From assembly GCA_964562675.1 (NCBI GenBank), contig CAZLUG010000002.1:5852-69851 (forward strand): a DNA stretch of 64,000 nt, read 5' to 3'. Under the pieces are notes generated by a model. That model was not told the origin of the DNA. It searched no databases and saw only the letters and a program-made list of their open reading frames with translations. This document shows positions 8,535-46,030 of the stretch, piece after piece (positions within the stretch are counted from its first letter, which is position 1; each line of letters opens with the position of its first letter). The position numbers and the translations under genes were made by a program. The stretch is from an uncultured Candidatus Saccharibacteria bacterium (GTDB lineage Bacteria > Patescibacteriota > Minisyncoccia > Minisyncoccales > CG1-02-41-26).

Positions 8535-8595
8535 AATTTATTTTATTAAAGATAAAAATTTTCAGCCTTTATATTTAATGTTTTAATATCTTAGT

Positions 8596-9072
8596 ATGGC
8601 TTTATTAAATGTTTTTAAGAAAAAGCAACCTTCAGGAAAAAAAGAAAAGAGTCCGGAGAAAATTTCGAATACCCAAAAAACAAAGAAAAAAGCTGAAGCA
8701 AAAGTTTTGAAAAAAGAAAAAACGCAAGGGGCAAAGACCGCTAAAACTTCCGCTCGACCGGTTAATTTTACGGCAAAAGGGAAACCTTATCACGAATCTT
8801 TCCGAATTTTACAGTCTCCCCATGTAACCGAAAAAGCTACTGCCTTAGCTGACAAAAATCAATACATATTTAAAGTTTATCATTCTGCCAACAAAACCGA
8901 GATTAAAAAAGCAGTTGAAAGTATTTACAACGTTCAGGTAGTTTCTGTGCATACGGCTAGTTTACCCGGGAAAAAAAGGCGTCTTGGTAAGCAAACTGGT
9001 TGGAAAAAAGGATATAAAAAAGCGATAGTTTCTTTAAAGGCTGGTCAGGAGATAGAAATTTTGCCAAGATAA
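8596..9072 (+). CDS. rplW: 50S ribosomal protein L23 (with ~60-aa lysine-rich N-terminal extension)
   Basis: uL23 C-terminal core: PHVTEKATALADKNQYIFKV...KTEIKKAVESIYNVQVVSV. Confidence 0.9.
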   Translation: MALLNVFKKKQPSGKKEKSPEKISNTQKTKKKAEAKVLKKEKTQGAKTAKTSARPVNFTAKGKPYHESFRILQSPHVTEKATALADKNQYIFKVYHSANKTEIKKAVESIYNVQVVSVHTASLPGKKRRLGKQTGWKKGYKKAIVSLKAGQEIEILPR

Positions 9073-9119
9073 TATTATTTTTTCCTTGCTCGGCTTCGAA
9101 CGGAGAATAGTTAATAATT

Positions 9120-9920
9120 ATGAATTTAGGGAAGAGAAAAAAAATATTGGCCAAAAAAAGGCCGGAGAGAAGCTTGGTTAAACCACTGAAAAGCAAAGGC
9201 GGCCGGTTTTTTTCCGGAAGAATTTCGATTCGCCATCGAGGCGGGGGAGTGAAAAAACTTTATCGCCTGGTAGATTTTAAGAATCAAAGATTAGGCGAAA
9301 GAGCCAAAGTACAAGCTTTAGAGTATGACCCAAATAGAACAGCCTATATTGCTCTTTTGGAATATGAAGATGGTCAAAAAAAATATATTATCGCTCCCGA
9401 CAAACTGAAGAAAGGAGACGAAATTATAATATCTGAAAAAGCACCGCTGAGCCCGGGCAATCGGATGGCGCTAAAAAATATTCCTGTCGGAACGGTTGTT
9501 CATAATATTGAGATTAATCCCGGTCAAGGGGGGAAAATTGCTAAAGCAGCGGGTAATGCATGCGAAATTGTTGCTCAAGAAGGAAAATACACGATCTTAA
9601 AAATGCCGTCTCGGGAGCTCAGGAAAATACTTTCTAATTGTTTTGCTTCAATAGGAGTAGTTTCAAACGTTGAACACCGTTTTCAAAAAGTTGGAAAAGC
9701 AGGTTCTCGGCGCTTAAAAGGGTGGCGGCCAACGGTTCGCGGATCGGCAATGAATCCTTGTGATCACCCTCACGGAGGCGGAGAAGGCAGGACGTCAATT
9801 GGCTTGAAGTACCCAAAGACGCCATGGGGAAAACCAGCCCTAGGTGTGAGAACACGGCGGCGCAAATGGAATGATAAACTTATTCTTAAACGGAGGAAAA
9901 AAGGCAAAAGAAATTCGTAA
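9120..9920 (+). CDS. rplB: 50S ribosomal protein L2
   Basis: uL2 pattern: RNQRLGERAKVQALEYDPNRTAYIAL...GWRPTVRGSAMNPCDHPHGGGEG. Confidence 0.95.
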   Translation: MNLGKRKKILAKKRPERSLVKPLKSKGGRFFSGRISIRHRGGGVKKLYRLVDFKNQRLGERAKVQALEYDPNRTAYIALLEYEDGQKKYIIAPDKLKKGDEIIISEKAPLSPGNRMALKNIPVGTVVHNIEINPGQGGKIAKAAGNACEIVAQEGKYTILKMPSRELRKILSNCFASIGVVSNVEHRFQKVGKAGSRRLKGWRPTVRGSAMNPCDHPHGGGEGRTSIGLKYPKTPWGKPALGVRTRRRKWNDKLILKRRKKGKRNS

Positions 9921-9950
9921 TTTAAATAGTTAAAAATCCATCACAAAATT

Positions 9951-10250
9951 ATGAGCAGGAGTTTAAAAAAAGGACCATATGTCAATGAGAAATTATTAAA
10001 GAAATTGTCAAAGCTTAAGGCTGGAGACAAAACGGTTATTAAAACTTGGTCAAGATCTTCAACTATTACCCCAGAAATGACCGGTTTTACATTCGGGGTT
10101 TATAACGGGAAAGAACATTTGAAAGTTTATATCACCGAAGATATGATTGGGCACAAATTAGGAGAGTTTTCCCCGACGACTAAATTTCACCGACACGGCG
10201 GGAAAATGCAAAAAGAGCTTGAGTCAAAGAGTAAAACAACAAATCAATAG
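9951..10250 (+). CDS. rpsS: 30S ribosomal protein S19
   Basis: uS19 pattern: [11 protein letters not shown]...[40 protein letters not shown]. Confidence 0.95.
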
Positions 10251-10306
10251 CCTACTTCAGGAGGGATAAATTTGCAATAAGTTGATTATTCATTACTATA
10301 TTATCC

Positions 10307-10870
10307 ATGCAAGTTAAAGTAAAATTAAACCATTTAAAAATAGCGCCCAGAAAAGTCCGCCTAGTAGCTGATTTAGTTCGTGGGAAGAAAGCAAGTTTAG
10401 CCAAAGCGCTTTTAAATTTCAGCGTTAAGCGGGGAGCTGTTTCTCTTCGGAAATTACTAAATTCAGCTTTGGCAGCGGCAAAAAATAATTATCATTTGGA
10501 CGAGGATCGATTTTACATTACGGAAGTTAAGGTTGACGAAGGGCCAAAGCTCAAACGGTTTAGAGCTCGTTCGCGGGGGCAAAGCTATTCTATTTTAAAG
10601 AGAAGTTCTTGTGTAACTTTGGTAATTTCAGAAATTAATAAGTCTTCTTCCCGAGTTCCTAAGCAAAAAGAATCGGCGAAGAAATCAACATCACCTAAAA
10701 AAGAACAAATATTAGCCAAGAAAGACGAAAAGTTGGTAAATAAGAAGAAAGAAGAAAAAATAAATAACAAAGTTGAAACCCTTAAACCGAAATTTTCTAG
10801 TGAGACCGTCCATCACCAAGGTTTAGGTAAAAAGAGTCTTAAGAGAGTTTTTAGACGAAAGGCTTTCTAA
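10307..10870 (+). CDS. rplV: 50S ribosomal protein L22 (with ~75-aa K-rich C-terminal extension)
   Basis: The uL22 core is RKVRLVADLVRGKKASLAKALLNFSVKRGA...GPKLKRFRARSRGQSYSILKRSSCVTLVI. It is followed by a low-complexity K/E-rich tail. Confidence 0.9.
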   Translation: MQVKVKLNHLKIAPRKVRLVADLVRGKKASLAKALLNFSVKRGAVSLRKLLNSALAAAKNNYHLDEDRFYITEVKVDEGPKLKRFRARSRGQSYSILKRSSCVTLVISEINKSSSRVPKQKESAKKSTSPKKEQILAKKDEKLVNKKKEEKINNKVETLKPKFSSETVHHQGLGKKSLKRVFRRKAF

Positions 10871-10879
10871 AAAAATATT

Positions 10880-11548
10880 TTGAATATGTCACACAAAACT
10901 AACCCAAAAATATTGCGAATAAGAAATATGGGAGATTGGTTGAGTAGAGGTTTTTATGGAAAGCATCTTGCCCGCGATCTGGAAGAGGATTTTAGAATCC
11001 GTAGTTTTTTGAAGAAAAAATTAGCAGCTGGCGCTGTTGAAAATATTATTATTAATCGTTCAGGATCTTTACTGAAAATTATTATAAAAACTGCCCGACC
11101 GGCTTTAATTATTGGAAGAGGCGGAAAAGAAATTGAACGCCTGCAAAAACTCTTGCAAAAAGTAATACTTAAAGGTAGGATAAAAAACGCTGGTGTGAAT
11201 CGGCAGACAAAAATTGATGTTGAGGAGGTCAAAAATTTTTGGCTTTCGGCAAATTTAGCTGCCCAATGGGTTAGCCAGCAATTAGAAAGGCGAATGCCTT
11301 ACCGAAAAGTTTTGAAAATGGGCCTTTCTAAAATTATGGCTCAGAGAGAAGCAAAAGGGGCAAGGATTGAAGTAGCGGGGCGGTTAAATGGAGTAGAAAT
11401 AGCTAGAACCGAATGGTTAGCGGAAGGGCGAATGCCTAGAGCTAACTTAAGAGCAATCATAGATTATGGTTTTACCGAAGCTCATTGTAAATACGGAACG
11501 ATTGGCGTAAAAGTTTGGATTTATAAAGGAGAGAGATTTAAGGAATAA
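10880..11548 (+). CDS. rpsC: 30S ribosomal protein S3
   Basis: KH domain and uS3 C-terminal domain: IGRGGKEIERL...GRLNGVEIARTEWLAEGRMP...GVKVWIYKGE. Confidence 0.95.
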   Translation: MNMSHKTNPKILRIRNMGDWLSRGFYGKHLARDLEEDFRIRSFLKKKLAAGAVENIIINRSGSLLKIIIKTARPALIIGRGGKEIERLQKLLQKVILKGRIKNAGVNRQTKIDVEEVKNFWLSANLAAQWVSQQLERRMPYRKVLKMGLSKIMAQREAKGARIEVAGRLNGVEIARTEWLAEGRMPRANLRAIIDYGFTEAHCKYGTIGVKVWIYKGERFKE

Positions 11549-35710: not shown

Positions 35711-36709
35711 ATGGAGTTAATTGGCTATCAAAATCAATGGGAATTTCTTTCGAGAGAAGTCCGTAACTTAAGAGTTTCTCAGGCTTATCTTTTTTCAGGA
35801 CCGGCTGAAATAGGAAAGAGAAAAATGGCCTTGGAATTGTTAAAACTATTAAATACCAACGTTCGCGGTTTTAATCAGGCTTTTTCTCGAATTTTCCGTG
35901 AGACAGGGATGATTGAGAAGAATATTTTTCCGGATTTATATTTTGTTCAACCCCAGAATCAGGATAATTCGACCCAGGTAAAAATAAGAGGGAAAGATAT
36001 TAGCATTACTCAGATTAGAAATCTTAGAGATTTTTTAAGGTTTAAAGCTCAAATATCCCGTTTCAAAATGGCTATCGTAGATAATGCAGAGAGAATGACA
36101 ATAGATGCTCAAAACAGTCTTTTAAAAACCTTAGAGGAACCAAAAGAGCAGACAATTTTAGTGCTTATCACTTCGCAAGAAAACAGCTTGTTGGCTACGG
36201 TGCGCTCGCGAACTCGGATTTTAAGATTTTCACCGCTCTCTTCGTTAACAATGGAAAAAGCTTTCCAGGGAAAAATCTCTCCTGAAAAACTTCAAGACTT
36301 GATTTTTCTTGCTCAAGGCCGGCCTGGGCGAGCTATAAAGTTGCTTAAAAATCCAAAGCAGTTTCAAGCCGAAGTAGAAATGATTAAAACTTTTCCTAAA
36401 TTGTTTAGCAGTCCTTACTTAATACGCTTTCAGTTTGTTAAAGATTTATTGAAAGAAAACTCAAAATTTCCTGCTCCTAAAGAGTTTTTAGATATTTGTT
36501 TAATCTATTTCCGTTGGATTTTGCTAAAAGAGATTGGGTTGGGCCAAAATATTCCTTCTACTTTGGTTAAGAATTCTTATCTTTTAGGCAATTTAAACTT
36601 GGAACAGGTAAAAAAAATTATTGAATTTTTAGAAAAATTAAAAGTTTTATTGGCTAAAACAAATTTAAATTCAAAATTAGCCTTAGAAACATTTATGACT
36701 TATGTTTGA
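35711..36709 (+). CDS. holB: DNA polymerase III delta-prime-like clamp-loader subunit
   Basis: AAA+-like N-terminus: QAYLFSGPAEIGKRKMALEL. It has the clamp-loader SRT-like motif (TVRSRTRILRF) and the ~330-aa size. Confidence 0.7.
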   Translation: MELIGYQNQWEFLSREVRNLRVSQAYLFSGPAEIGKRKMALELLKLLNTNVRGFNQAFSRIFRETGMIEKNIFPDLYFVQPQNQDNSTQVKIRGKDISITQIRNLRDFLRFKAQISRFKMAIVDNAERMTIDAQNSLLKTLEEPKEQTILVLITSQENSLLATVRSRTRILRFSPLSSLTMEKAFQGKISPEKLQDLIFLAQGRPGRAIKLLKNPKQFQAEVEMIKTFPKLFSSPYLIRFQFVKDLLKENSKFPAPKEFLDICLIYFRWILLKEIGLGQNIPSTLVKNSYLLGNLNLEQVKKIIEFLEKLKVLLAKTNLNSKLALETFMTYV

Positions 36710-37256
36710 TAAAAATCTTGAAAAAATAAAAATAGAAGTTGAAGAAAAAATATCTAAATTTAAAGAAGCAATTGTTAAAATTAGAACTTCAAGAATTTCT
36801 CCTTCTTTGGTTGAAAATATCAAAGTAGATTGTTTTGGCAAAGATTTACCATTAAAAACTTTAGCTTCTATTTCCTCCCCGATGCCCAGAGAATTGCTTT
36901 TACAGCCTTGGGATAAAATATATCTTGAATCTATAGAAAAAGCTATTCAAAGATCGGGATTAGGACTTACGCCGATTTTAGATAAGGATAAAATTCGTTT
37001 AATGGCGCCTGTTTTAAACGCTGAATACCGAGAAGATTTGCTTAAACTTCTTGGCCAAGAAAAGGAGCTTGCCCGGGAGAATATTAGGCGTTTGCGGGAA
37101 TCAGCCTGGCGAGGCATACAAGATAGTTTCCAGAAAAAAGAGATTAGTGAGGACGAAAAATTTAAAGCGAAAGATAAACTTCAAGAGATTATTGATAAAG
37201 CTAATAAAAAAATCCAAGAAATTTCCCAAGCTAAGGAAAAAGAAATTGTTGTCTAA
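36702..37256 (+). CDS. frr: ribosome recycling factor
   Basis: RRF pattern: KFKEAIVKIRTSRISPSLVENIKVDCFGKDLPLKTLASISSP...LTPILDKDKIRLMAPVLNAEYRED. Confidence 0.93.
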   Translation: MFDKNLEKIKIEVEEKISKFKEAIVKIRTSRISPSLVENIKVDCFGKDLPLKTLASISSPMPRELLLQPWDKIYLESIEKAIQRSGLGLTPILDKDKIRLMAPVLNAEYREDLLKLLGQEKELARENIRRLRESAWRGIQDSFQKKEISEDEKFKAKDKLQEIIDKANKKIQEISQAKEKEIVV

Positions 37257-37336
37257 AACCATTATTTCTAAATTTTTATTTCCCAAGGATAAATCCTTAT
37301 TATCCGTAAAATTATATTTCGGTTATTTTTAAATTT

Positions 37337-40300
37337 ATGGATCTTCCAAAACGAGAGGAACAAATTATAAAATTTTGGCAGCAGAGAAAGATTTTCCAAA
37401 AGTCTCTGAAGCAGAACAAAAAGCGGCCTTATTTTAGTTTTTACGATGGGCCTCCTTTTGCTACCGGTTTACCGCATTATGGACACATTCTAGCTTCAAC
37501 CGTTAAAGACACCGTTTTACGTTATTGGTCTCAGCATCGTTATAGAGTTGAGTGGCGAGTGGGGTGGGATTGCCATGGGCTACCAGTAGAGAATCTTATT
37601 GAAAAAGAGTTAGGAGTTAAAACAAAAAAAGAGATTGAAAAGAAAATTGGTGTAGGAAAATTTAATCGAGCTTGCCGAAATTCTGTTTTTCGTTGTGTCA
37701 ACGACTTTCAAAAAATTCTTCAGCGAATAGGGCGATGGGCTGATTATGCAAATGCCTACGCTACTTTAGACCCGAATTACACCGAAAGTGTTTGGTGGGT
37801 TTTTAAAAAATTATTTGATAAAAAACTTATCTATCAGGATTACCGTGTAACTCCTTACTGCCCGCGTTGTGGCACTCCGTTGTCTAACTTTGAAGTTAAC
37901 CTAGGATACAAAAATGTTGAAGATGAATCTATTTACGTAAAATTTGCTCTTTTAGACCAGCCTCAAACTTTCTTTTTAGTTTGGACTACTACTCCCTGGA
38001 CTCTACCAGCTAATCTTGCCATAGCCGTTAACCAAAAATTTGAATATGTAAAAATTCGCCTAGAAAATAATGACAATAATCTTTCTCCTCAATTTCTTAT
38101 CTTGGCGAAAAAGCGGTTGGGCATTATTAAAGGAAATTATAAAATTATAGAAAATTTGTCTGGCCGTAAATTAGTGGGTTTGGCATATTCTCCTCTTTAC
38201 AAATTGAGAAATCATGAATTTAATCTTGAGCAAAAAAACAAAATTTTTAAGGTTGTTCCAGCTGATTTTGTTACCCTAGAGGAAGGGACAGGATTGGTGC
38301 ATATGGCCCCAGCTTTTGGGGAAGACGATCGGCAGGTAGGGAAAAAGTTTAACTTGCCTATTCTTATAACTATCAATTCCGAAGGGTCAATTTTGAAAGG
38401 ATTAGGTATTCCCGGTGAAGGAAAATTTGTTAAAGAAGCAGACAAAGACATTAAAACAGATTTAAAGAAACGAAATTTGCTTTATCGAGCAGAGAAAATT
38501 AAACATATTTATCCATTTTGTTATCGCTGTGATACCCCGCTTTTGTATTATCCCCTAAAAAGCTGGTATTTGAAGGTTACCGATTTTAGAAAACAATTAG
38601 TGGCTAACAACCAAAAAATTAATTGGCGTCCGAATTACTTAAAAAATGGGCGTTTTGGAAAATGGCTGAAAGGAGCAAGAGATTGGTGTTTATCCCGTAA
38701 TCGTTATTGGGGTGCTCCTATTCCTATTTGGGAGTGTTCTCATTGCCAAAAGAAAATAGCTGTTGGTTCAAAACAAGAATTAGGCAGACTAAGTACCACG
38801 TCTAACTTTTATTACCTTTTAAGGCATGGTGAAACTTCCTGCCATCAAAAAGGAATCATTGCCAATGATATTAACCATGATACCTGCCACTTGACTTCAG
38901 CGGGGAAAAAACAAATTCAAGAGGTGGCAAAGAAGTTAAGGAAAGAAAAAATCGATGTTATTTTTGCTTCTGATTTACGGCGCACTAAAGAAACCGCAAA
39001 CATTGTAGCTAAAACTCTTGGCCTAAAGGTAGAATTTTCTCCGAAACTTCGGGATCTGAATGTAGGACTCTACAATGGCCGTAGACTCGATTTTATTAAA
39101 GAACAAGTTTCTTTTGCAAAAAATCCCCAAGAAGCCTTTCCTAAAGGAGAAAGCTTAGTAAGCTGTTGGCAAAGAATGAAAGATGTCTTTCACGATACGG
39201 AGAGCAAATATCAAGGAAAAAAAGTACTAGTCATAGGACACGCCTTTCCCTTAAAATGCTTTGAGGGTATTCTTAAAGGCCATGGTTTATCTGAGGTGAG
39301 AGCAAAGAGAAATTTTGAAGTTGCTGAATTAAAAAAGATTGTCGGCAAAAAATGGCCCTTCAATGAAAGCGGAGAATTTGATTTTCATCGTCCCTACATT
39401 GATGAAGTTACACTCAAGTGTCCGATTTGCCATCATCCAATGAAACGCGTCCCTGAAGTTTTTGATTGCTGGTTTGAATCTGGTTCAATGCCGTATGCTC
39501 AGTGGCATTATCCTTTCAGCCACAAAAAAGTCGTGGAGAAAACTTTTCCCGCCGATTTTATTGCTGAAGGCGTAGACCAAACTCGAGGATGGTTTTATAC
39601 CTTGCATGTTTTAGCTACAGCCTTAACTCTGGAAAATATTGGCTTAGGAAAAAATAAGCCGGCCTTCAAGAATGTCATTGCCCACGGTTTAGTTCTAGGA
39701 GAAGATGGACGAAAGCTCTCTAAACACCTTAAGAATTATTCATCCCCCAATAACATTATCGACCATTACGGAGCTGATGCTTTACGTTTCTTTTTGCTGA
39801 GTTCTACGCCTATTGGACAGGATTATATTTTCTCTCAAAAAAGATTATCAATTACTTTTCGCCAAGTCATTGTAACTCTTTGGAACTCTTGGCAGTTTTT
39901 AAAAACATATTTACCAAAAGGGTTTATTTTGACGCCGAAAATTCAACCCCAAAATATTCTCGACAAATGGATTCTCTCTCGATTAGGTACTTTAGAAATT
40001 GAAATAGAAAAACAAATGAAGGCTTACCAATTGACCAAAGCAACTAGATTAATTGGAGTTTTTATAGATGATTTGTCAAATTGGTATATTCGCCGTTCGC
40101 GAATTAATTTTCAAAAAGAATCGGGAAAAACCGATAAAATAAAATCTGCCAACTTACTGGGTTTTACCTTGCTAAGATTATCCCAAATTTCTGCTCCGTT
40201 TATGCCTTTTTTAAGCGAAATGATTTATCAGTGGTTAAAAGAAAAAGCTCAATGGAAACTTCCCGAATCGGTCCATCTCACTCGTTATCCCGAAAAAGAG

Positions 40301-40834
40301 AAATCGTTTCAAAGCATTGCTCTGGAACGAAAAATGAAATTGGCCCGAGAAATAGTTGCTGAAATTCTTAGCCAGCGCTCTTCGCATAATTTAAAGATTC
40401 GCCAGCCTCTAAGCAAAGTAAGTTTTCCTCTAGATAAACTAAAAAATAAGAAATTGTGGAAAGTGGTGCAAGAAGAGACAAATATCCAAAAAATTGTCTT
40501 TAATCAAAAGCAGAAAGAGAATATTATTCTAGATACCAAACTTACCCCAGAGTTAAAAGAAGCAGGATTTTTAAGGGAGTTTATGCACGATATTCGGTCA
40601 CTGCGCAAAAAGACCGGTTTTAACCGTTTCCAAAAAACCAGCTTGAGTGTTACCGGTAATGAAAAATTTGTCTCTCTTGTCCAGAAAAATCAAGCAATTA
40701 TCCAAAAGGAGACATTATTGCAAGACATCCATTTTCCTCTTAGGGAAAGCGATATTTCTCAACAAGAAACGTACCTCCAAAAAGATTTTATTTTTCTTGA
40801 ATTTCAAGGTAAGATTTACTTGAGGAAGAATTAA
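37337..40834 (+). CDS. ileS: isoleucyl-tRNA synthetase, type 2 (eukaryote-like), carrying an inserted histidine-phosphatase domain
   Basis: Class I aaRS with PPFATGLPHYGHIL (HIGH region) and KLSKHLKNY (KMSKS-like). Type-2 IleRS blocks are WCLSRNRYWGAPIPIW and HRPYIDEVTLKCPICHHPMKRVPEVFDCWFESGSMPYAQ. A ~190-aa insert lies between these two blocks. Confidence 0.93.
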   Translation: MDLPKREEQIIKFWQQRKIFQKSLKQNKKRPYFSFYDGPPFATGLPHYGHILASTVKDTVLRYWSQHRYRVEWRVGWDCHGLPVENLIEKELGVKTKKEIEKKIGVGKFNRACRNSVFRCVNDFQKILQRIGRWADYANAYATLDPNYTESVWWVFKKLFDKKLIYQDYRVTPYCPRCGTPLSNFEVNLGYKNVEDESIYVKFALLDQPQTFFLVWTTTPWTLPANLAIAVNQKFEYVKIRLENNDNNLSPQFLILAKKRLGIIKGNYKIIENLSGRKLVGLAYSPLYKLRNHEFNLEQKNKIFKVVPADFVTLEEGTGLVHMAPAFGEDDRQVGKKFNLPILITINSEGSILKGLGIPGEGKFVKEADKDIKTDLKKRNLLYRAEKIKHIYPFCYRCDTPLLYYPLKSWYLKVTDFRKQLVANNQKINWRPNYLKNGRFGKWLKGARDWCLSRNRYWGAPIPIWECSHCQKKIAVGSKQELGRLSTTSNFYYLLRHGETSCHQKGIIANDINHDTCHLTSAGKKQIQEVAKKLRKEKIDVIFASDLRRTKETANIVAKTLGLKVEFSPKLRDLNVGLYNGRRLDFIKEQVSFAKNPQEAFPKGESLVSCWQRMKDVFHDTESKYQGKKVLVIGHAFPLKCFEGILKGHGLSEVRAKRNFEVAELKKIVGKKWPFNESGEFDFHRPYIDEVTLKCPICHHPMKRVPEVFDCWFESGSMPYAQWHYPFSHKKVVEKTFPADFIAEGVDQTRGWFYTLHVLATALTLENIGLGKNKPAFKNVIAHGLVLGEDGRKLSKHLKNYSSPNNIIDHYGADALRFFLLSSTPIGQDYIFSQKRLSITFRQVIVTLWNSWQFLKTYLPKGFILTPKIQPQNILDKWILSRLGTLEIEIEKQMKAYQLTKATRLIGVFIDDLSNWYIRRSRINFQKESGKTDKIKSANLLGFTLLRLSQISAPFMPFLSEMIYQWLKEKAQWKLPESVHLTRYPEKEKSFQSIALERKMKLAREIVAEILSQRSSHNLKIRQPLSKVSFPLDKLKNKKLWKVVQEETNIQKIVFNQKQKENIILDTKLTPELKEAGFLREFMHDIRSLRKKTGFNRFQKTSLSVTGNEKFVSLVQKNQAIIQKETLLQDIHFPLRESDISQQETYLQKDFIFLEFQGKIYLRKN
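38807..39300 (+). other. embedded histidine phosphatase (PGAM/His_Phos_1-like) domain within ileS
   Basis: Catalytic RHG motif YYLLRHGETSCHQ (codons at 38810-38833). An Arg motif is in ASDLRRTKETANIV. The second catalytic His is in KKVLVIGHAFPLKCF. The domain length is ~165 aa. Confidence 0.7.
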
Positions 40835-40926: not shown

Positions 40927-41472
40927 ATGAAAAAATGGTTAAAGTTCCTATTAATTTTCCTTATTATTTTGGCAATTTCAGTTATCGTTTTGGCTTTTAT
41001 TGGTTCTAAAGGGGGAAAACTATCTCCTAATATTTTTCACCTTAATAAAGGAACAAAGAAAACTCCCCTCAATGAAGTAGTTGTAGATAATGTAAGGTTC
41101 AAATTGGTTTCTTTAAAAAACCTTGGCAGTGTTCTCCAGGGGAAAGATGCTCCTTATCTAAAAAGGATAAGCAACTTGCAGGCCGAAGGAAAATTTCTGG
41201 AAATTACTTTATCAGCGGAAAATTTAGGCACTACTTCCCAGCCATATTGGTTTGTCTCTTATCTTGTTGACGGAGAAGGAAAGCAGTTACGTACAGGCTG
41301 GAAAGCCGAAAGCTGGATTCCTCAAAATGATGAATGCTATGGGAGGCTTGATCCAGGAAAGGCGCCGAAAATTTGTAAGAAAATTTTCGATGTCCCCTTA
41401 GACGCAGCTGGTCTAAAGTTAAAGGTGGAAGTTGGCCTTAAATACAATGGTTTGTTGAATTTGGGAATATAA
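40927..41472 (+). CDS. hypothetical secreted/membrane-anchored protein (DUF4352-like pattern, tentative)
   Basis: N-terminal TM/signal WLKFLLIFLIILAISVIVLAFIG, followed by a ~150-aa beta-rich domain. Confidence 0.4.
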   Translation: MKKWLKFLLIFLIILAISVIVLAFIGSKGGKLSPNIFHLNKGTKKTPLNEVVVDNVRFKLVSLKNLGSVLQGKDAPYLKRISNLQAEGKFLEITLSAENLGTTSQPYWFVSYLVDGEGKQLRTGWKAESWIPQNDECYGRLDPGKAPKICKKIFDVPLDAAGLKLKVEVGLKYNGLLNLGI

Positions 41473-41567
41473 AATTTACTCTGAAGACTTGCGATAATCT
41501 TATTTTGTAAATTTTGTTTAAGTTTTTCTGAATTAAATTTTAATGTGTTTTTCTAAGGAGAATTTCT

Positions 41568-42773
41568 ATGTTGAATGGATTACAAACGGAGAAGATATTT
41601 ACGGTCAGCGAATTTATTTCTCTCCTAAATAGAATTTTGTTGCCCCAGAGAGCGATTGTTCAAGGAGAGGTGGGAAAGATGAGTCAAAGAGCTAGCTATA
41701 CATTTTTCCCGCTTCGTGATAAGCAAAAACAAGAGACTTTAAATTGTTTTGTCTGGCAGGATAAGTTGGAATATTTTGGGACTACTCTCAAAGAGGGGAT
41801 GGAAATAAAAGTTGAAGGTTTCCCAGCTATCTTTCGCCGTACCGGAAGTTTAAATTTTCAAGTAGAACAGATTGCGTTGGTAGGAGAAGGAGCCCTAAAA
41901 CAGGCTTTTGAAGCTTTAAAAAGAAAACTTAAAGAACTTGGCTATTTTTCTTTAGAGCATAAAAAGGTCATTCCTCGATTTTCGCAAAAGATAGGACTTA
42001 TTACTTCTCGTTTTGCCGCTGCAAAAACTGATTTTCTTGAGCATCTCGGCAAATTCAGCTTCGAAATTTATTTTTATGATGTCAGAGTTGAGGGAATAAG
42101 AGCAGTAGATGATATTATTAGGGCTATCCGTTGGTTTAATGAAAATATGTCTGACATTGATGTTCTCGTTATAACTCGTGGCGGAGGAAGTTGGGAAAGC
42201 CTGCAAGCTTTTAACTCGGAAATGGTTGCCAGAGCTATTTTTGCCTCAAAGATTCCTATTATTGCGGGGGTAGGTCATGAGGTAGATGAAACAATTGCTG
42301 GTTTTATAGCTGATAAAAGAGCATCAACTCCCACCCATGCTGCTCGAATCTTAAGTGATCCTTGGAAATTAGCCCGAGAATTAGTTGCAGAAGCCAAAGA
42401 AAATATTTTTTCCGCTTTAGCAAAATCCCGCCGTAATTATCAAATCCGCCTCAATAATATTTTTGCCCAAAATCTTTCTCTGTTTCGGGAAGCTCTCAGA
42501 AGGAACAATAAAGAGTTATCACAAAAAACTGTTCAGCTTTTTCAAAATTATTCACATTGGCTGGGAAGGCTAAAAAACACCTTAGATCAATATCAGGAAA
42601 AACTGATTCTTTCCAGCCCCCAACTGAAACTTAAGCAGGGTTATAGTATTGTTTTTAATCAAAAAGGTGAAATTCTTAAAAGAGCAGATGAGCTGAAACT
42701 TGGAGAAGAAATGACAACTATATTCTATCGCGGGAAGGCTAAATCAGAAGTAAAGAAATTAATCGATAAATAG
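41568..42773 (+). CDS. xseA: exodeoxyribonuclease VII large subunit
   Basis: N-terminal OB fold (IVQGEVGKMSQRASYTFFPLRDKQ...LNCFVWQ) and central catalytic region (GLITSRFAAAKTDF...VITRGGGSWESL). Confidence 0.9.
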   Translation: MLNGLQTEKIFTVSEFISLLNRILLPQRAIVQGEVGKMSQRASYTFFPLRDKQKQETLNCFVWQDKLEYFGTTLKEGMEIKVEGFPAIFRRTGSLNFQVEQIALVGEGALKQAFEALKRKLKELGYFSLEHKKVIPRFSQKIGLITSRFAAAKTDFLEHLGKFSFEIYFYDVRVEGIRAVDDIIRAIRWFNENMSDIDVLVITRGGGSWESLQAFNSEMVARAIFASKIPIIAGVGHEVDETIAGFIADKRASTPTHAARILSDPWKLARELVAEAKENIFSALAKSRRNYQIRLNNIFAQNLSLFREALRRNNKELSQKTVQLFQNYSHWLGRLKNTLDQYQEKLILSSPQLKLKQGYSIVFNQKGEILKRADELKLGEEMTTIFYRGKAKSEVKKLIDK

Positions 42774-42870
42774 TTTTTCTTCATAGACATAATATAGGTT
42801 TCGCAAATTAGTTTTAAGAAACTTGGAAATTTAAAGGGATTCTGTGTATTATTTTAATCATTAAGCAAAT

Positions 42871-43077
42871 ATGCCTACTGCAAAAAATAAAATAAATTTT
42901 AATGAAGCTTTTGCTGAACTTGAAGAAATTAATCAATGGTTTCAGCAGGAAAATATCGATTTAGACGAAGGCTTGAAAAAATTCAAGAGAGGCATGGAAC
43001 TTATAAATCTTTGCAAAAAAAGATTAACCGAAGTTGATAATAAGTTTCAAGAAGTTAAAAAAGAATTCTCAGACTAA
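42871..43077 (+). CDS. xseB: exodeoxyribonuclease VII small subunit
   Basis: 68-aa helical protein with FNEAFAELEEINQWFQQENIDLDEGLKKFKRGMELINLCKKRL, which is XseB-like. It immediately follows xseA. Confidence 0.85.
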   Translation: MPTAKNKINFNEAFAELEEINQWFQQENIDLDEGLKKFKRGMELINLCKKRLTEVDNKFQEVKKEFSD

Positions 43078-43078
43078 A

Positions 43079-46030
43079 ATGCCTAGAAAACTTAATTTGG
43101 CCCAAAAAAAAGCCGTCCACTTTAATGAAGGGCCTCTTTTAGTAGTTGCGGGCGCTGGAACTGGGAAAACAACGGTTATTACTCAACGTTTAGCATATTT
43201 AGTGAAAAACAAGAAAGCGAAAGCCAATGAGGTGCTTGCTTTAACTTTTACCGAGAAAGCCGTCGAGGAAATGGAAAATAGAATAGACGACTTGCTTTCT
43301 TCAAGCTACTTGGACCTTTGGATTTCAACATTTCATTCATTTTGTGAAAGAATCCTCCGTGATAACGCTTTTGATATAGGTCTCAGTCCGAATTTCAAAG
43401 TTCTTAATCAAACTTCATCTTGGCTTTTAGTGAGACAGAATATCAAAAGATTTAGATTGAATTATTACCGGCCTTTGGGGAACCCTTCTAGATTTATTTT
43501 TGCCCTTTTGAAACACTTTTCCCGATGCAAAGATGAAGGAATTTATCCTGAAAATTACTTGGAATTTGCCGAAAATTTCAAGGGCCTAAATTCTCAACTT
43601 AAAGAAGAAAAAGCTAGAATTAAAGAAGTAGCGAAAGCCTACGCTGATTATCAAAATTTGCTTTTAGAGAAAGGTTTTTTGGATTTTGGTGATTTAATAA
43701 ATTATACCTTAAAGGTTTTTCGCCAACGGAAAACTATTTTAGAACATTATCAAAAACAATTTAAATATATCTTAATTGATGAGTTTCAGGACACAAACTG
43801 GGCTCAATATGAATTGATAAAATTATTAGCTCTGCCAAAAAACAATCTCACGGTTTGCGCCGATGACGACCAATCTATTTATCTTTTTAGGGGAGCTTCT
43901 TTTAATAACGTTTTAAGGTTTCGCAAAGATTACCCAAAAGCCAAAGAGATTGTTTTAACCAAAAATTATCGTTCGACACAGAATATTCTTGACCTAGCCT
44001 ATAAATTTATCCAATTAAATAATCCGAATAGGCTTGAATACCAATTGAATAAAGACCGAGAAATTCTTCGTAAGGCAAAAGATAAGGGTGTAGATTTATC
44101 ACATTTTAAGAAAATAGACAAAAAACTTAAAGCCGTCACTGCTAAAAAGGGTATTATCAAATATCTTCACTTTGAGAGTTTAGCCAAGGAAGCCCAAGGT
44201 GTAGCTGAAGAAATTATTAAGATTTACCAGAAAGATTCTAAGACAAAATTAAGTGATTTCGTTGTTTTGGTGAGAGCCAATAAAAGCGCCCAGCCATTTT
44301 GCCAGGCTTTTAGTAAAGCTAATATTCCTTATCAATTTTTAGCACTAAAAGGGCTTTACCAAAAATCAGTAATTATTGACGTCATTTCTTATTTTAAGCT
44401 CTTAGATAATTACCATGAAGGACCTGCTTGTTATAGAGTTTTGAATTTACCTCATTGGGAAATTTCCCCAAAAGACATTTCAAAAATTATTTTTTCAAGC
44501 AGAATGCGCGCTCAATCTATCTATGAAACTCTTCTCAGGGTTGACACAATTAAGGATTTAAGCAAAAAAACAGTTTTGGCGGTGAAGCGCTTATTAAAAC
44601 TTCTTAAGAAACATTCTAAACTAGCGCGAGAGGGGAGTGTCAGTGAAGTTTTCACCGCATTTTTAGAAGACTCCGGCTATTTAAAGTACTTGGCTAAACA
44701 AAATAACCAGAAAAGCCGGGAGAGTTTAGAATATCTCGAGCAATTTTATGATAAAATTAAACTCTTTGAAGCTAGCGAGATAGATTCTCATTTAAGCAGT
44801 TTTAGGCAACAAATAGAATGGGAAATCGAAGCAGGGGAGGAAGGTTCACTAAAATTTGATGCATATTCTGAAAAAAATGCCGTTAAAATTATGACAATCC
44901 ATGCCGCTAAGGGACTAGAATTCAAATATGTTTTTTTAGTTAGCTTGGTGGATAAACATTTCCCAACAATTGCCGTTAAAGAACCTATTGAAATTCCAGA
45001 ACCTTTAATTAAAGAAGTTATTCCCAAAGGAGACATCCATTTGCAAGAAGAAAGAAGATTATTTTATGTTGGTTTAACTCGAGCAAAAAGGGGAATTTTC
45101 CTAACTTCCGGAGAAGATTACGGAGGACAAAGAAGAAAAAAGATATCAAGGTTTCTCCAAGAGCTTGGTTTTAAAGGGAAAATTCGAAAGAAAGCAGAAC
45201 CGAAACTTTCTTTCGAAAACAAAAATGCGTTTAAAAAAGATAAATCTTTTTCGTTCCGGAGAAAAATAAAAATTTCTCACCTTTCTTACACTCAGCTTGC
45301 CGCTTTTGAAAAATGTCCGCTCCAGTATAAATTTGCTCACATCTTAAAAATTCCCGTCAAAGGGAAAGCTTCTTTTACTTTTGGCAAGGTAATGCACCAC
45401 ACCCTTTTTGAGTTTGTTTCTTTGGCTAGCGAAAAGATAAAAAATCGCCAGCCAATTCCTCCATTTCGCAGCCTTCTTGAATTTTATAATAAAAATTGGC
45501 TGAACCAATGGTATTTAGACAGAGAACAACGTTCCGACTACAAAAAGTTAGGCGAAAAATCCTTAAGGAAATTTTACAAAGATTTTGCAAGTGAAAAGCC
45601 AATGATAAAATTTATTGATGAAAAGCCATTTTTAGAGAGAGGCTTCAATTTAAAAATGGGAAGTTATCACTTAACTGGTCAAATTGACCGCATCGATGAA
45701 TTAGAAGATGGGGAAGTAGAGATTATTGATTACAAAACGGGAAATCCAAAAAAAGCGCTTTCAAGAGAAGATAAAGAACAATTGTTAATTTATCAAATGG
45801 CGGTTGAAAATATTTTGGGATTAAAAATAAAAAGGCTTACTTACTATTATCTTAACAACAACCAAACGATTTCTTTTTTAGGAACTCAGAAAGAAAAAGA
45901 GTCTCTGAGACAAAAAATTTTGGCGGAAGCCAAAAAAATTGAATCTGGAAAATTTTCCCCTCATCCAGGATGGCAATGCCAATATTGTGACTTTCGGGAA
46001 ATATGCGAATTTAGGGAAAATCATCAATAA
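43079..46030 (+). CDS. UvrD/PcrA-family helicase fused to C-terminal Cas4/AddB-type Fe-S PD-(D/E)xK nuclease
   Basis: The ATG at 43079 abuts the xseB stop; the ORF-track start is an upstream TTG. Helicase motifs include Walker A GAGTGKTT, DEFQDTN, and the motif VI region VGLTRAK. The C-terminus has EKCPLQY (N-Cys), GQIDRIDELEDGEVEIIDYKTG (D...E-x-K), QLLIYQMAVE (QxxxY) and CQYCDFREIC (C-x2-C-x5-C). Confidence 0.85.
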   Translation: MPRKLNLAQKKAVHFNEGPLLVVAGAGTGKTTVITQRLAYLVKNKKAKANEVLALTFTEKAVEEMENRIDDLLSSSYLDLWISTFHSFCERILRDNAFDIGLSPNFKVLNQTSSWLLVRQNIKRFRLNYYRPLGNPSRFIFALLKHFSRCKDEGIYPENYLEFAENFKGLNSQLKEEKARIKEVAKAYADYQNLLLEKGFLDFGDLINYTLKVFRQRKTILEHYQKQFKYILIDEFQDTNWAQYELIKLLALPKNNLTVCADDDQSIYLFRGASFNNVLRFRKDYPKAKEIVLTKNYRSTQNILDLAYKFIQLNNPNRLEYQLNKDREILRKAKDKGVDLSHFKKIDKKLKAVTAKKGIIKYLHFESLAKEAQGVAEEIIKIYQKDSKTKLSDFVVLVRANKSAQPFCQAFSKANIPYQFLALKGLYQKSVIIDVISYFKLLDNYHEGPACYRVLNLPHWEISPKDISKIIFSSRMRAQSIYETLLRVDTIKDLSKKTVLAVKRLLKLLKKHSKLAREGSVSEVFTAFLEDSGYLKYLAKQNNQKSRESLEYLEQFYDKIKLFEASEIDSHLSSFRQQIEWEIEAGEEGSLKFDAYSEKNAVKIMTIHAAKGLEFKYVFLVSLVDKHFPTIAVKEPIEIPEPLIKEVIPKGDIHLQEERRLFYVGLTRAKRGIFLTSGEDYGGQRRKKISRFLQELGFKGKIRKKAEPKLSFENKNAFKKDKSFSFRRKIKISHLSYTQLAAFEKCPLQYKFAHILKIPVKGKASFTFGKVMHHTLFEFVSLASEKIKNRQPIPPFRSLLEFYNKNWLNQWYLDREQRSDYKKLGEKSLRKFYKDFASEKPMIKFIDEKPFLERGFNLKMGSYHLTGQIDRIDELEDGEVEIIDYKTGNPKKALSREDKEQLLIYQMAVENILGLKIKRLTYYYLNNNQTISFLGTQKEKESLRQKILAEAKKIESGKFSPHPGWQCQYCDFREICEFRENHQ

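Follow-up and report, generated by a model that had tools for sequence, protein, structure and literature searches.

A histidine-phosphatase domain nested within isoleucyl-tRNA synthetase recurs in Patescibacteria and in valyl-tRNA synthetase

RESULTS

A second enzyme inside isoleucyl-tRNA synthetase

The ileS gene on a 64,000-nucleotide stretch of DNA from an uncultured Candidatus Saccharibacteria bacterium (GTDB lineage Bacteria; Patescibacteriota; Minisyncoccia; Minisyncoccales; CG1-02-41-26; GenBank assembly GCA_964562675.1, contig CAZLUG010000002.1, positions 5,852 to 69,851 of the forward strand; this whole stretch is hereafter the window) encodes a type-2 isoleucyl-tRNA synthetase (IleRS) that carries a complete histidine phosphatase within its own chain. 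The same domain recurs at the same site in other IleRSs and at the homologous site in valyl-tRNA synthetases (ValRSs), and free-standing members of its family are encoded directly upstream of ileS genes that lack the insert. Judging from these sequences, we consider it probable that the phosphatase has catalytic activity and serves the synthetase as a dedicated partner, the fusion being the covalent form of a two-gene module.

The gene occupies positions 37337..40834 of the forward (+) strand, as do all parts of it given below, and is a single uninterrupted open reading frame (ORF) of 1165 amino acids (aa), hereafter the query. Its inserted histidine-phosphatase domain (His_Phos_1, branch 1; 38795..39373, aa 487-679) was delimited by alignment to the Thermus thermophilus IleRS (PDB accession 1ILE), by the Pfam profile PF00300, and by AlphaFold2 (AF2) modeling. 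It replaces a linker of about 6 residues in the T. thermophilus enzyme, such that query residues 3-486 align with 10-480 and residues 680-1007 with 487-809, and insert-less relatives have 12-25 residues at this point, so that neither they nor 1ILE hold any equivalent sequence there. An earlier note on this DNA, made from the letters alone, had counted about 190 extra residues, in agreement with the 193 obtained from the 1ILE alignment, and the interval that it marked (38807..39300, aa 491-654) is the Pfam core of the insert. That note had also set the domain in the catalytic core; it does lie between blocks of the synthetase, but its site is the zinc subdomain of the third connective peptide (CP3) and not the Rossmann core.

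This placement follows published domain maps, in which CP3 comes directly after the CP2-CP3 linker, "ARDWNVSRNRYWG", in which CP3 of the yeast enzyme comprises residues 459-526, and in which CP3 topology varies among IleRSs (PMC7955072, PMC7191050); CP3 of T. thermophilus IleRS carries a zinc motif (PMC7191050). The query linker corresponds to aa 446-459, with an intact 10-residue motif at 450, and is followed by the first CxxC pair of the CP3 zinc knuckle (C467 and C470, 38735..38746; kept in 75 and 74, respectively, of the 76 homologues with the insert), the insert, and the second CxxC pair (C695 and C698, 39419..39430; each kept in 75 of the 76). Because the linker and the CxxC pairs flank the insert, the alignment puts the phosphatase in the loop of the CP3 zinc knuckle, a peripheral connective-peptide subdomain that falls between the two Rossmann halves in sequence. 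The domain would thus be tethered near the synthetic site, since CP3 directly follows a linker that helps to form the tRNA 3'-end (reveromycin A) pocket of yeast IleRS (PMC7955072). The insert has a GC content (0.38-0.39, as a fraction) that matches the rest of ileS, and no meaningful direct or inverted repeats were found at its borders; with neither border repeats nor a compositional break, a mobile-element origin was rejected.

Identity, fold, and active site of the phosphatase

The hidden Markov model PF00300 matches aa 493-656 of the full-length product with 114 bits against a gathering threshold of 21.7 (E = 8.9e-33; profile positions 2-168 of 194), and the insert alone matches with E = 2.8e-34. 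In the AF2 model of the full-length protein, most of the insert has a predicted local distance difference test (pLDDT) score of 87-97, and when modeled by itself the insert has a pLDDT of 83. The insert-only model adopts a dPGM-like alpha/beta fold and superimposes on PDB entries 4IJ6, 4IJ5, 4QIH, and 1H2E with template-modeling (TM) scores of 0.76-0.82 and a probability of 1.00, the PspA structures 4IJ6 and 4IJ5 heading the list at 0.82. These are followed by a glucosyl-3-phosphoglycerate phosphatase, a riboflavin-pathway phosphatase, PhoE, CobC, and fructose-2,6-bisphosphatase, and all of the nearest solved structures by fold are small-molecule phosphomonoesterases. By sequence, the closest solved relatives are the phosphoserine phosphatase PspA of H. 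thermophilus, PhoE, and CobC. Assignment to a particular subfamily was rejected in each case tried, given the NCBIfam scores for the whole protein and for the insert, respectively: CobC (TIGR03162), 85 and 90 bits against a cut-off of 163; PspA (NF045917), 72 and 73 against 350; GpmB (NF002901), 78 and 83 against 261; and SixA (TIGR00249), 31 and 35 against 74.5. Because every specific subfamily model falls below its cut-off, no substrate can be assigned by homology.

The predicted phospho-acceptor histidine lies in the RHG motif R496-H497-G498 (38822..38830), whose arginine and histidine are present in 129 of 131 IleRS-embedded copies, the two gaps being truncated copies. The phosphate-binding arginine R549, in SDLRRTKETA (38981..38983), is kept in 130 of the 131, and the second active-site histidine, H635 in VIGHAFP (39239..39241), in all of them; between these, the GES...R motif runs from E605 (131 of 131) to R613 (130 of 131; 39149..39175). 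The predicted proton donor is D573 (39053..39055), which aligns with the catalytic glutamate of PspA (4IJ5). Most family members have Glu here, and the position is always acidic in IleRS-embedded copies (96 Glu and 35 Asp); Asp also occurs in 22 of 74 free-standing proteins. The earlier note had read the RHG motif, a second arginine, and a second histidine in that order, and all three stand, with two refinements, namely Asp573 and a histidine (His503) in place of Asn after RHGE. Both catalytic histidines occur in every full-length embedded copy, and the catalytic positions are also kept in nearly all domains of proteins with several copies. Mean pairwise identity is only 40% among inserts versus 57% for the IleRS body, yet the catalytic positions are held, and catalysis in the IleRS-embedded domains would appear to be under purifying selection. 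The Pfam match, the confident fold, and the conserved catalytic set bear out the suggestion of the note that the insert is an intact enzyme: by these signs it is a branch-1 histidine phosphatase that is apparently catalytically competent, not a relic.

Distribution of the embedded domain among IleRSs

An insert at the same site was detected in 76 of the 120 best IleRS homologues, and these insert-bearing proteins, 46-62% identical to the query, come from NCBI, JGI, ENA, and Logan assemblies; the sources named include Nealsonbacteria, Jorgensenbacteria, Colwellbacteria, Paceibacterota, and Parcubacteria. The insertion is thus widespread among Patescibacteria and not peculiar to the source genome, and since assemblies of independent origin, well over 100 in number, show the insert at this very position, a chimeric assembly join, which the earlier note had raised as a concern, is excluded.

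To gauge frequency and gene context, we used 80 ileS loci from the GTDB species representatives among the matches listed, which constitute a sample and not a census. The domain is embedded in 21 of them, among which are loci from Paceibacteria, Minisyncoccia, Spechtbacterales, Peregrinibacteria, and Peribacteria. In the remaining 59, drawn from Chloroflexota, spirochaetes, clostridia, archaea, and some Patescibacteria, no phosphatase is embedded or nearby. A neighbor-joining tree of the IleRS body (120 sequences), made to see whether the insert arose once, does not split cleanly by presence of the insert (18 of 120 misplaced). In a neighbor-joining tree of 243 phosphatase domains, whose roughly 180 columns with about 35% identity carry too little signal for counting captures, embedded and free-standing domains are interleaved in 83 blocks; we judged relatedness by nearest-neighbor identity and shared Asp573, not by this tree.

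Insert-bearing IleRSs and ValRSs are named by NCBI only as "class I tRNA ligase family protein," whereas most relatives without the insert bear the name "isoleucine--tRNA ligase" or "valine--tRNA ligase." Because of this generic name, automated metabolic reconstructions may score insert-bearing genomes as lacking IleRS or ValRS.

About 10 IleRS "fragments" begin at the phosphatase domain and run to the IleRS C terminus (among them P0124, P0139, P0188, P0199, P0201, P0212, P0215, and P0257), a number higher than one would expect if contigs were simply truncated at random. Such sequences may come from ileS genes divided in two, with the N-terminal half encoded first and the phosphatase plus C-terminal half second, or may be gene-calling artefacts.

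A free-standing phosphatase gene upstream of insert-less ileS

An exhaustive search that used only the insert returned 1,051 cluster representatives at E <= 1e-10, the top 150 of which we inspected. Roughly half of these are whole or fragmentary IleRSs with the domain at the CP3 site, and roughly half are free-standing proteins of 170-220 aa; the only fusion partners among the 150 are IleRS and ValRS, and no other host protein occurs. The closest free-standing subfamily (about 190 aa) consists of Parcubacteria/Paceibacterota proteins that are called "PhoE" in JGI naming. The free-standing relatives keep the same catalytic residues as the embedded copies.

In seven of nine genomes examined, the free-standing gene immediately precedes, in the same orientation, an ileS without the insert, separated from it by a gap of 1-22 nucleotides (nt) or overlapping it by 4 nt (ATGA type). 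Five of the seven downstream genes encode IleRS orthologues with 7-16 residues at the CP3 junction, and the other two (968 and 951 aa) have the IleRS Pfam domain set. Two tandem phosphatase genes, 64% identical to each other, precede ileS at one locus (L087). Every ileS beside a phosphatase gene is without the insert, and, conversely, no extra phosphatase gene was found within 5 kb of the 21 loci with an embedded domain: the embedded and adjacent-gene states are complementary. Once the small clade to which it belongs is set aside, the query insert is 40-44% identical to the ileS-adjacent free-standing subfamily, with which it shares Asp573, versus a mean of 32% to other embedded copies.

Two further observations concern these loci. 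At L005, the insert-less ileS (8591-11418) is called as two overlapping genes of 757 and 189 aa, which reflects a frameshift or else a true division of the gene close to the C-terminal domain. Free-standing Nudix genes lie a few kilobases upstream of the phosphatase-ileS pair in L001-L003.

Recurrence in ValRS, tandem copies, and additional sites

One protein, P0121, consists of the N-terminal half of a ValRS followed by at least four tandem phosphatase domains. Using it as a query, we found the domain in 71 of 120 ValRS matches, present as one copy in 57, two in 12, three in 1, and at least four in 1. These ValRSs derive from Gracilibacteria and Peregrinibacteria, and several are encoded on contigs of 0.7-1.4 Mb. 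In the ValRS P0415, the insert (aa 460-655) falls between positions equivalent to residues 420 and 442 of T. thermophilus ValRS, with "WNISRQLWWGHQIPAWYC" on its N-terminal side and "DTWFSS" on its C-terminal side; this is the CP3 site homologous to that of IleRS. A second ValRS insertion site lies about 40 residues upstream of the "WNISRQLWWGHQIPAWYC" motif.

IleRSs also show multiplication, with tandem doubles at the CP3 site in P0173 and at loci L028 and L029 (Peribacteria and Peregrinibacteria), and P0175 and P0236 (1419 aa IleRS) carry, besides the CP3 copy, a second copy just before the anticodon-binding domain. Arrays of two, three, and at least four domains within one synthetase are represented by P0121 (a ValRS fragment), P0395, P0173/P0272/P0273, L028, and L029, and in the IleRS tandem examples the core catalytic residues are kept in every copy. 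Another patescibacterial IleRS (P0265, NCBI MCX6807234.1) has, in addition to a CP3 histidine phosphatase (aa 642-819), a Nudix domain (aa 226-343) that is inserted close to where CP1 begins and whose Nudix box, at residue 258, is perfect.

The synthetase body and its surroundings

Apart from the insert, the query has the features of an ordinary type-2 IleRS, which is how the earlier note had classified it. It scores 862 bits with the ileS profile TIGR00392 (cut-off, 621), and Pfam finds tRNA-synt_1 in two stretches around PF00300, with Anticodon_1 and DUF5915 downstream. The N-terminal part (aa 1-486, 37337..38794; aligned to 1ILE residues 10-480) comprises the first Rossmann half, the CP core, the CP1 editing domain, CP2, the CP2-3 linker, and the start of CP3. 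The C-terminal part (aa 680-1165, 39374..40834), in which aa 680-1007 align to 1ILE residues 487-809 and which holds the Anticodon_1 and DUF5915 matches, comprises the end of CP3, the second Rossmann half, the anticodon-binding domain, and the type-2 C-terminal domains. Class I signature motifs (PHYGH at 46 and KLSKH at 793) and CP1 editing-site motifs (WTTTPWT at 216 and GTGLVHMAPAFGEDD at 317) occur at positions that are invariant or nearly so in the alignment of IleRS homologues, and the zinc cysteines of the CP core are present. The full-length AF2 model (pLDDT, 90; predicted TM score, 0.84) fits the IleRS2 structures 8C8V, 8WND, and 1ILE with target-normalized TM scores of 0.82-0.92, and the top matches by structure and sequence are all type 2 (1ILE, the P. 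megaterium IleRS2, and eukaryotic cytosolic enzymes), with type-1 enzymes (1FFY and 8C9E) far lower. By these sequence features, the IleRS part is a complete type-2 enzyme with its synthetic, editing, and anticodon-binding domains and both zinc knuckles intact, and it presumably charges tRNA-Ile normally. It was not assigned to the mupirocin-resistance enzymes MupA and MupB (NF000257 and NF000258), for which it scores 695 and 693 bits against an "exception" cut-off of 1900.

Upstream of ileS (35711-37256) are mreB, a holB-like gene for the DNA polymerase III delta' subunit, and frr; downstream (40927-46030) are a gene whose 181-aa product has no Pfam match, xseA, and a gene for a UvrD/PD-(D/E)XK (AddA-like) helicase-nuclease. 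The 64-kb window contains no other histidine phosphatase, and its only tRNA gene is that for tRNA-Pro GGG (733-804). A TTG-initiated ORF of 93 aa (37051-37332, +), rich in lysine and arginine, lies just upstream of ileS and, read in a different frame, overlaps the 3' end of frr; it is probably spurious, situated as it is in AT-rich sequence.

DISCUSSION

A probable dedicated phosphatase partner for IleRS and ValRS

The reading that we favor is that the query is bifunctional, combining an IleRS with a small branch-1 histidine phosphatase of the PhoE/PspA/CobC kind. By analogy with that family, the phosphatase would hydrolyze phosphomonoesters through a phospho-His497 intermediate, with R496, R549, R613, and H635 holding the phosphate and D573 protonating the leaving group. 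It would be a dedicated partner of IleRS and ValRS, and not a random passenger, because related Patescibacteria encode the same family in one of three ways, namely as a gene of its own upstream of ileS and translationally coupled to it, within IleRS, or within ValRS at the corresponding CP3 site, and the embedded form would be the fused, covalent version of the phosphatase-ileS pair. Operon linkage and recurrence in ValRS support a real functional tie to the synthetase without pointing to a substrate. By analogy with the structural relatives, the substrate is most probably a small phosphomonoester tied to the Ile/Val synthetase reaction; we infer a small phosphorylated metabolite or nucleotide, possibly a nucleotide by-product, whose turnover would be coupled to that reaction.

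Several observations weigh against this reading. The substrate is not readable from the sequence, the CobC, PspA, GpmB, and SixA models all scoring below their cut-offs. IleRS generally does not need the phosphatase, in that 59 of the 80 sampled loci, those of other Patescibacteria included, have none inside or near the gene. Two of the nine free-standing homologues examined are not beside ileS, and adjacency in the remainder occurs mostly within a conserved argS-ileS-recO neighborhood, so that part of the phosphatase-ileS linkage may be inherited synteny and shared ancestry instead of repeated selection. No phosphatase gene was found beside insert-less valS in any of the three cases examined. 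Finally, in 22 of the 71 phosphatase-bearing ValRSs the catalytic set is incomplete in every copy: most of these proteins lack the proton donor, nine also carry Asn in place of the second histidine, and three owe the gap to an unaligned domain start. For that reason a noncatalytic role may suffice in some ValRSs.

Alternative explanations

A bolder version of the partnership would make the class Ia synthetases concerned in Patescibacteria enzymes with a third catalytic center, the CP3 phosphatase acting on a 2'- or 3'-phosphate at the tRNA acceptor end or on a nucleotide derived from the adenylate, with the operon form amounting to the same complex held together noncovalently. Were this true, phosphate removal would be an integral step of the charging, repair, or quality control of Ile and Val tRNAs; we regard it as possible but unlikely.

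It also seems rather unlikely that the domain is an unrelated housekeeping phosphatase lodged in a permissive loop, where fusion to an essential, constitutively expressed gene would secure its expression in a streamlined genome. Such an origin is in keeping with the variable topology of CP3 among IleRSs, with the absence of the domain from most IleRSs, with the existence of free-standing copies, some of them in unrelated neighborhoods, and with the metabolic phosphatases that are its nearest relatives. A mere passenger, however, would not be expected to alternate in complementary fashion between an embedded and an adjacent-gene form, nor does this account fit a single family that enters both synthetases, with up to two insertion sites per enzyme, that is operon-coupled to ileS when unfused, and that has no fusion partner other than IleRS and ValRS in the top 150 cluster representatives.

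We find it quite unlikely that the domain works on tRNA ends in cis, as a third catalytic site that removes a 3'-phosphate, a 2'-phosphate, or an opened 2',3'-cyclic phosphate from tRNA-Ile or tRNA-Val and so renders damaged or processed molecules chargeable or repairable. Its position fits this idea, about 28 residues past the CP2-3 linker, which in the yeast enzyme forms part of the wall of the tRNA 3'-end pocket, as does the fact that its two hosts, which share a homologous insertion site, are both tRNA-handling enzymes. The closest structural and sequence relatives, however, are all small-molecule phosphatases, and we know of no branch-1 histidine phosphatase that works on RNA ends. Charge, which we considered as a clue to RNA binding, is not discriminating: the IleRS-embedded and free-standing domains are indeed basic (median isoelectric point [pI], about 9), but this is not specific because the IleRS body itself, from an AT-rich and lysine-rich genome, has a pI of 9.7, and the ValRS-embedded copies are acidic (median pI, 5.9).

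A noncatalytic module, in which the enzymatic residues would be kept for ligand binding and the domain would serve in phosphate or tRNA binding, dimerization, or as a scaffold, could accommodate the 22 incomplete ValRSs, since nearly all of their aligned copies still keep the RH and Arg phosphate-binding residues, and the tandem arrays, which could form internal pseudo-dimers in a family whose branch-1 members commonly dimerize, but it is highly improbable: in IleRS every full-length copy retains the proton donor and both histidines, beyond what simple binding needs, as do the free-standing relatives.

What the nested phosphatase would mean

Aminoacyl-tRNA synthetases are among the best-studied enzymes, and extra domains in them have time and again led to new biology, such as editing, membrane anchoring, and signaling. 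That synthetases recruit accessory domains is already known, and the sequences analyzed here are public and bear automatic Pfam labels; full-text literature searches and recent IleRS and aminoacyl-tRNA synthetase surveys yielded no described synthetase with a histidine-phosphatase domain, in line with the earlier note, whose author was aware of none. What the present data add is that, throughout a large radiation of bacteria, IleRS and ValRS can harbor a complete second enzyme with a conserved active site, which alternates with an operon form and is sometimes multiplied up to at least fourfold. This pattern points to an unrecognized, selectable link between phosphate removal and the synthesis of Ile- and Val-tRNA in minimal genomes, and it would give a function to a large patescibacterial "PhoE-like" family.

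Comparison with known systems

The body of the query, with all its motifs, is that of described type-2 IleRSs (1ILE, 8C8V, and TIGR00392), which differ in having only a short linker at the CP3 position in the solved and described enzymes. IleRSs with an additional enzymatic domain have already been catalogued in the form of the GNAT-bearing family NF040702, of which the query is not a member (290 bits against a cut-off of 1999). On the phosphatase side, the insert resembles the small branch-1 enzymes PspA (4IJ5), PhoE (1H2E), CobC (6E4B), Rv2419c, and the riboflavin-pathway enzyme HFP (9MMH) in size (about 190-210 aa), in fold (at the TM scores given above), and in the possession of the RHG motif, two arginines, an acidic residue, and a second histidine; it differs in being only 19-26% identical to them, in having Asp in place of Glu as the proton donor, and in being nested within another enzyme. 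The RNase H/acid phosphatase of the Rv2228c type (NF005567) likewise joins a CobC-like phosphatase to a nucleic-acid-handling enzyme, and its model is among the top NCBIfam matches of the insert (85-89 bits, below the cut-off of 326), but there the phosphatase is fused end to end with RNase H and is neither nested nor part of a synthetase.

The closest parallel in process is the cyanobacterial CAAD domain, in which the stand-alone Curt1 family was recruited into ValRS, IleRS, LeuRS, GluRS, and other class I synthetases (PMC4893482). There, too, a stand-alone family has been taken up internally and repeatedly within one phylum and at alternative insertion points, a neighboring-gene stage is preserved in related species (gltX beside curt1), and the synthetases that bear the domain stay active (PMC4893482). 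The marks of CAAD-type recruitment, namely, a stand-alone family in the phylum, an adjacent-gene stage, and entry into several class I synthetases, are all present in the phosphatase system, as an analogy of process and not of homology. CAAD, however, is a nonenzymatic membrane anchor built of transmembrane helices, whereas the domain described here is enzymatic and soluble, has a conserved active site, is confined as sampled to IleRS and ValRS, is located mainly in CP3, and can be multiplied in tandem.

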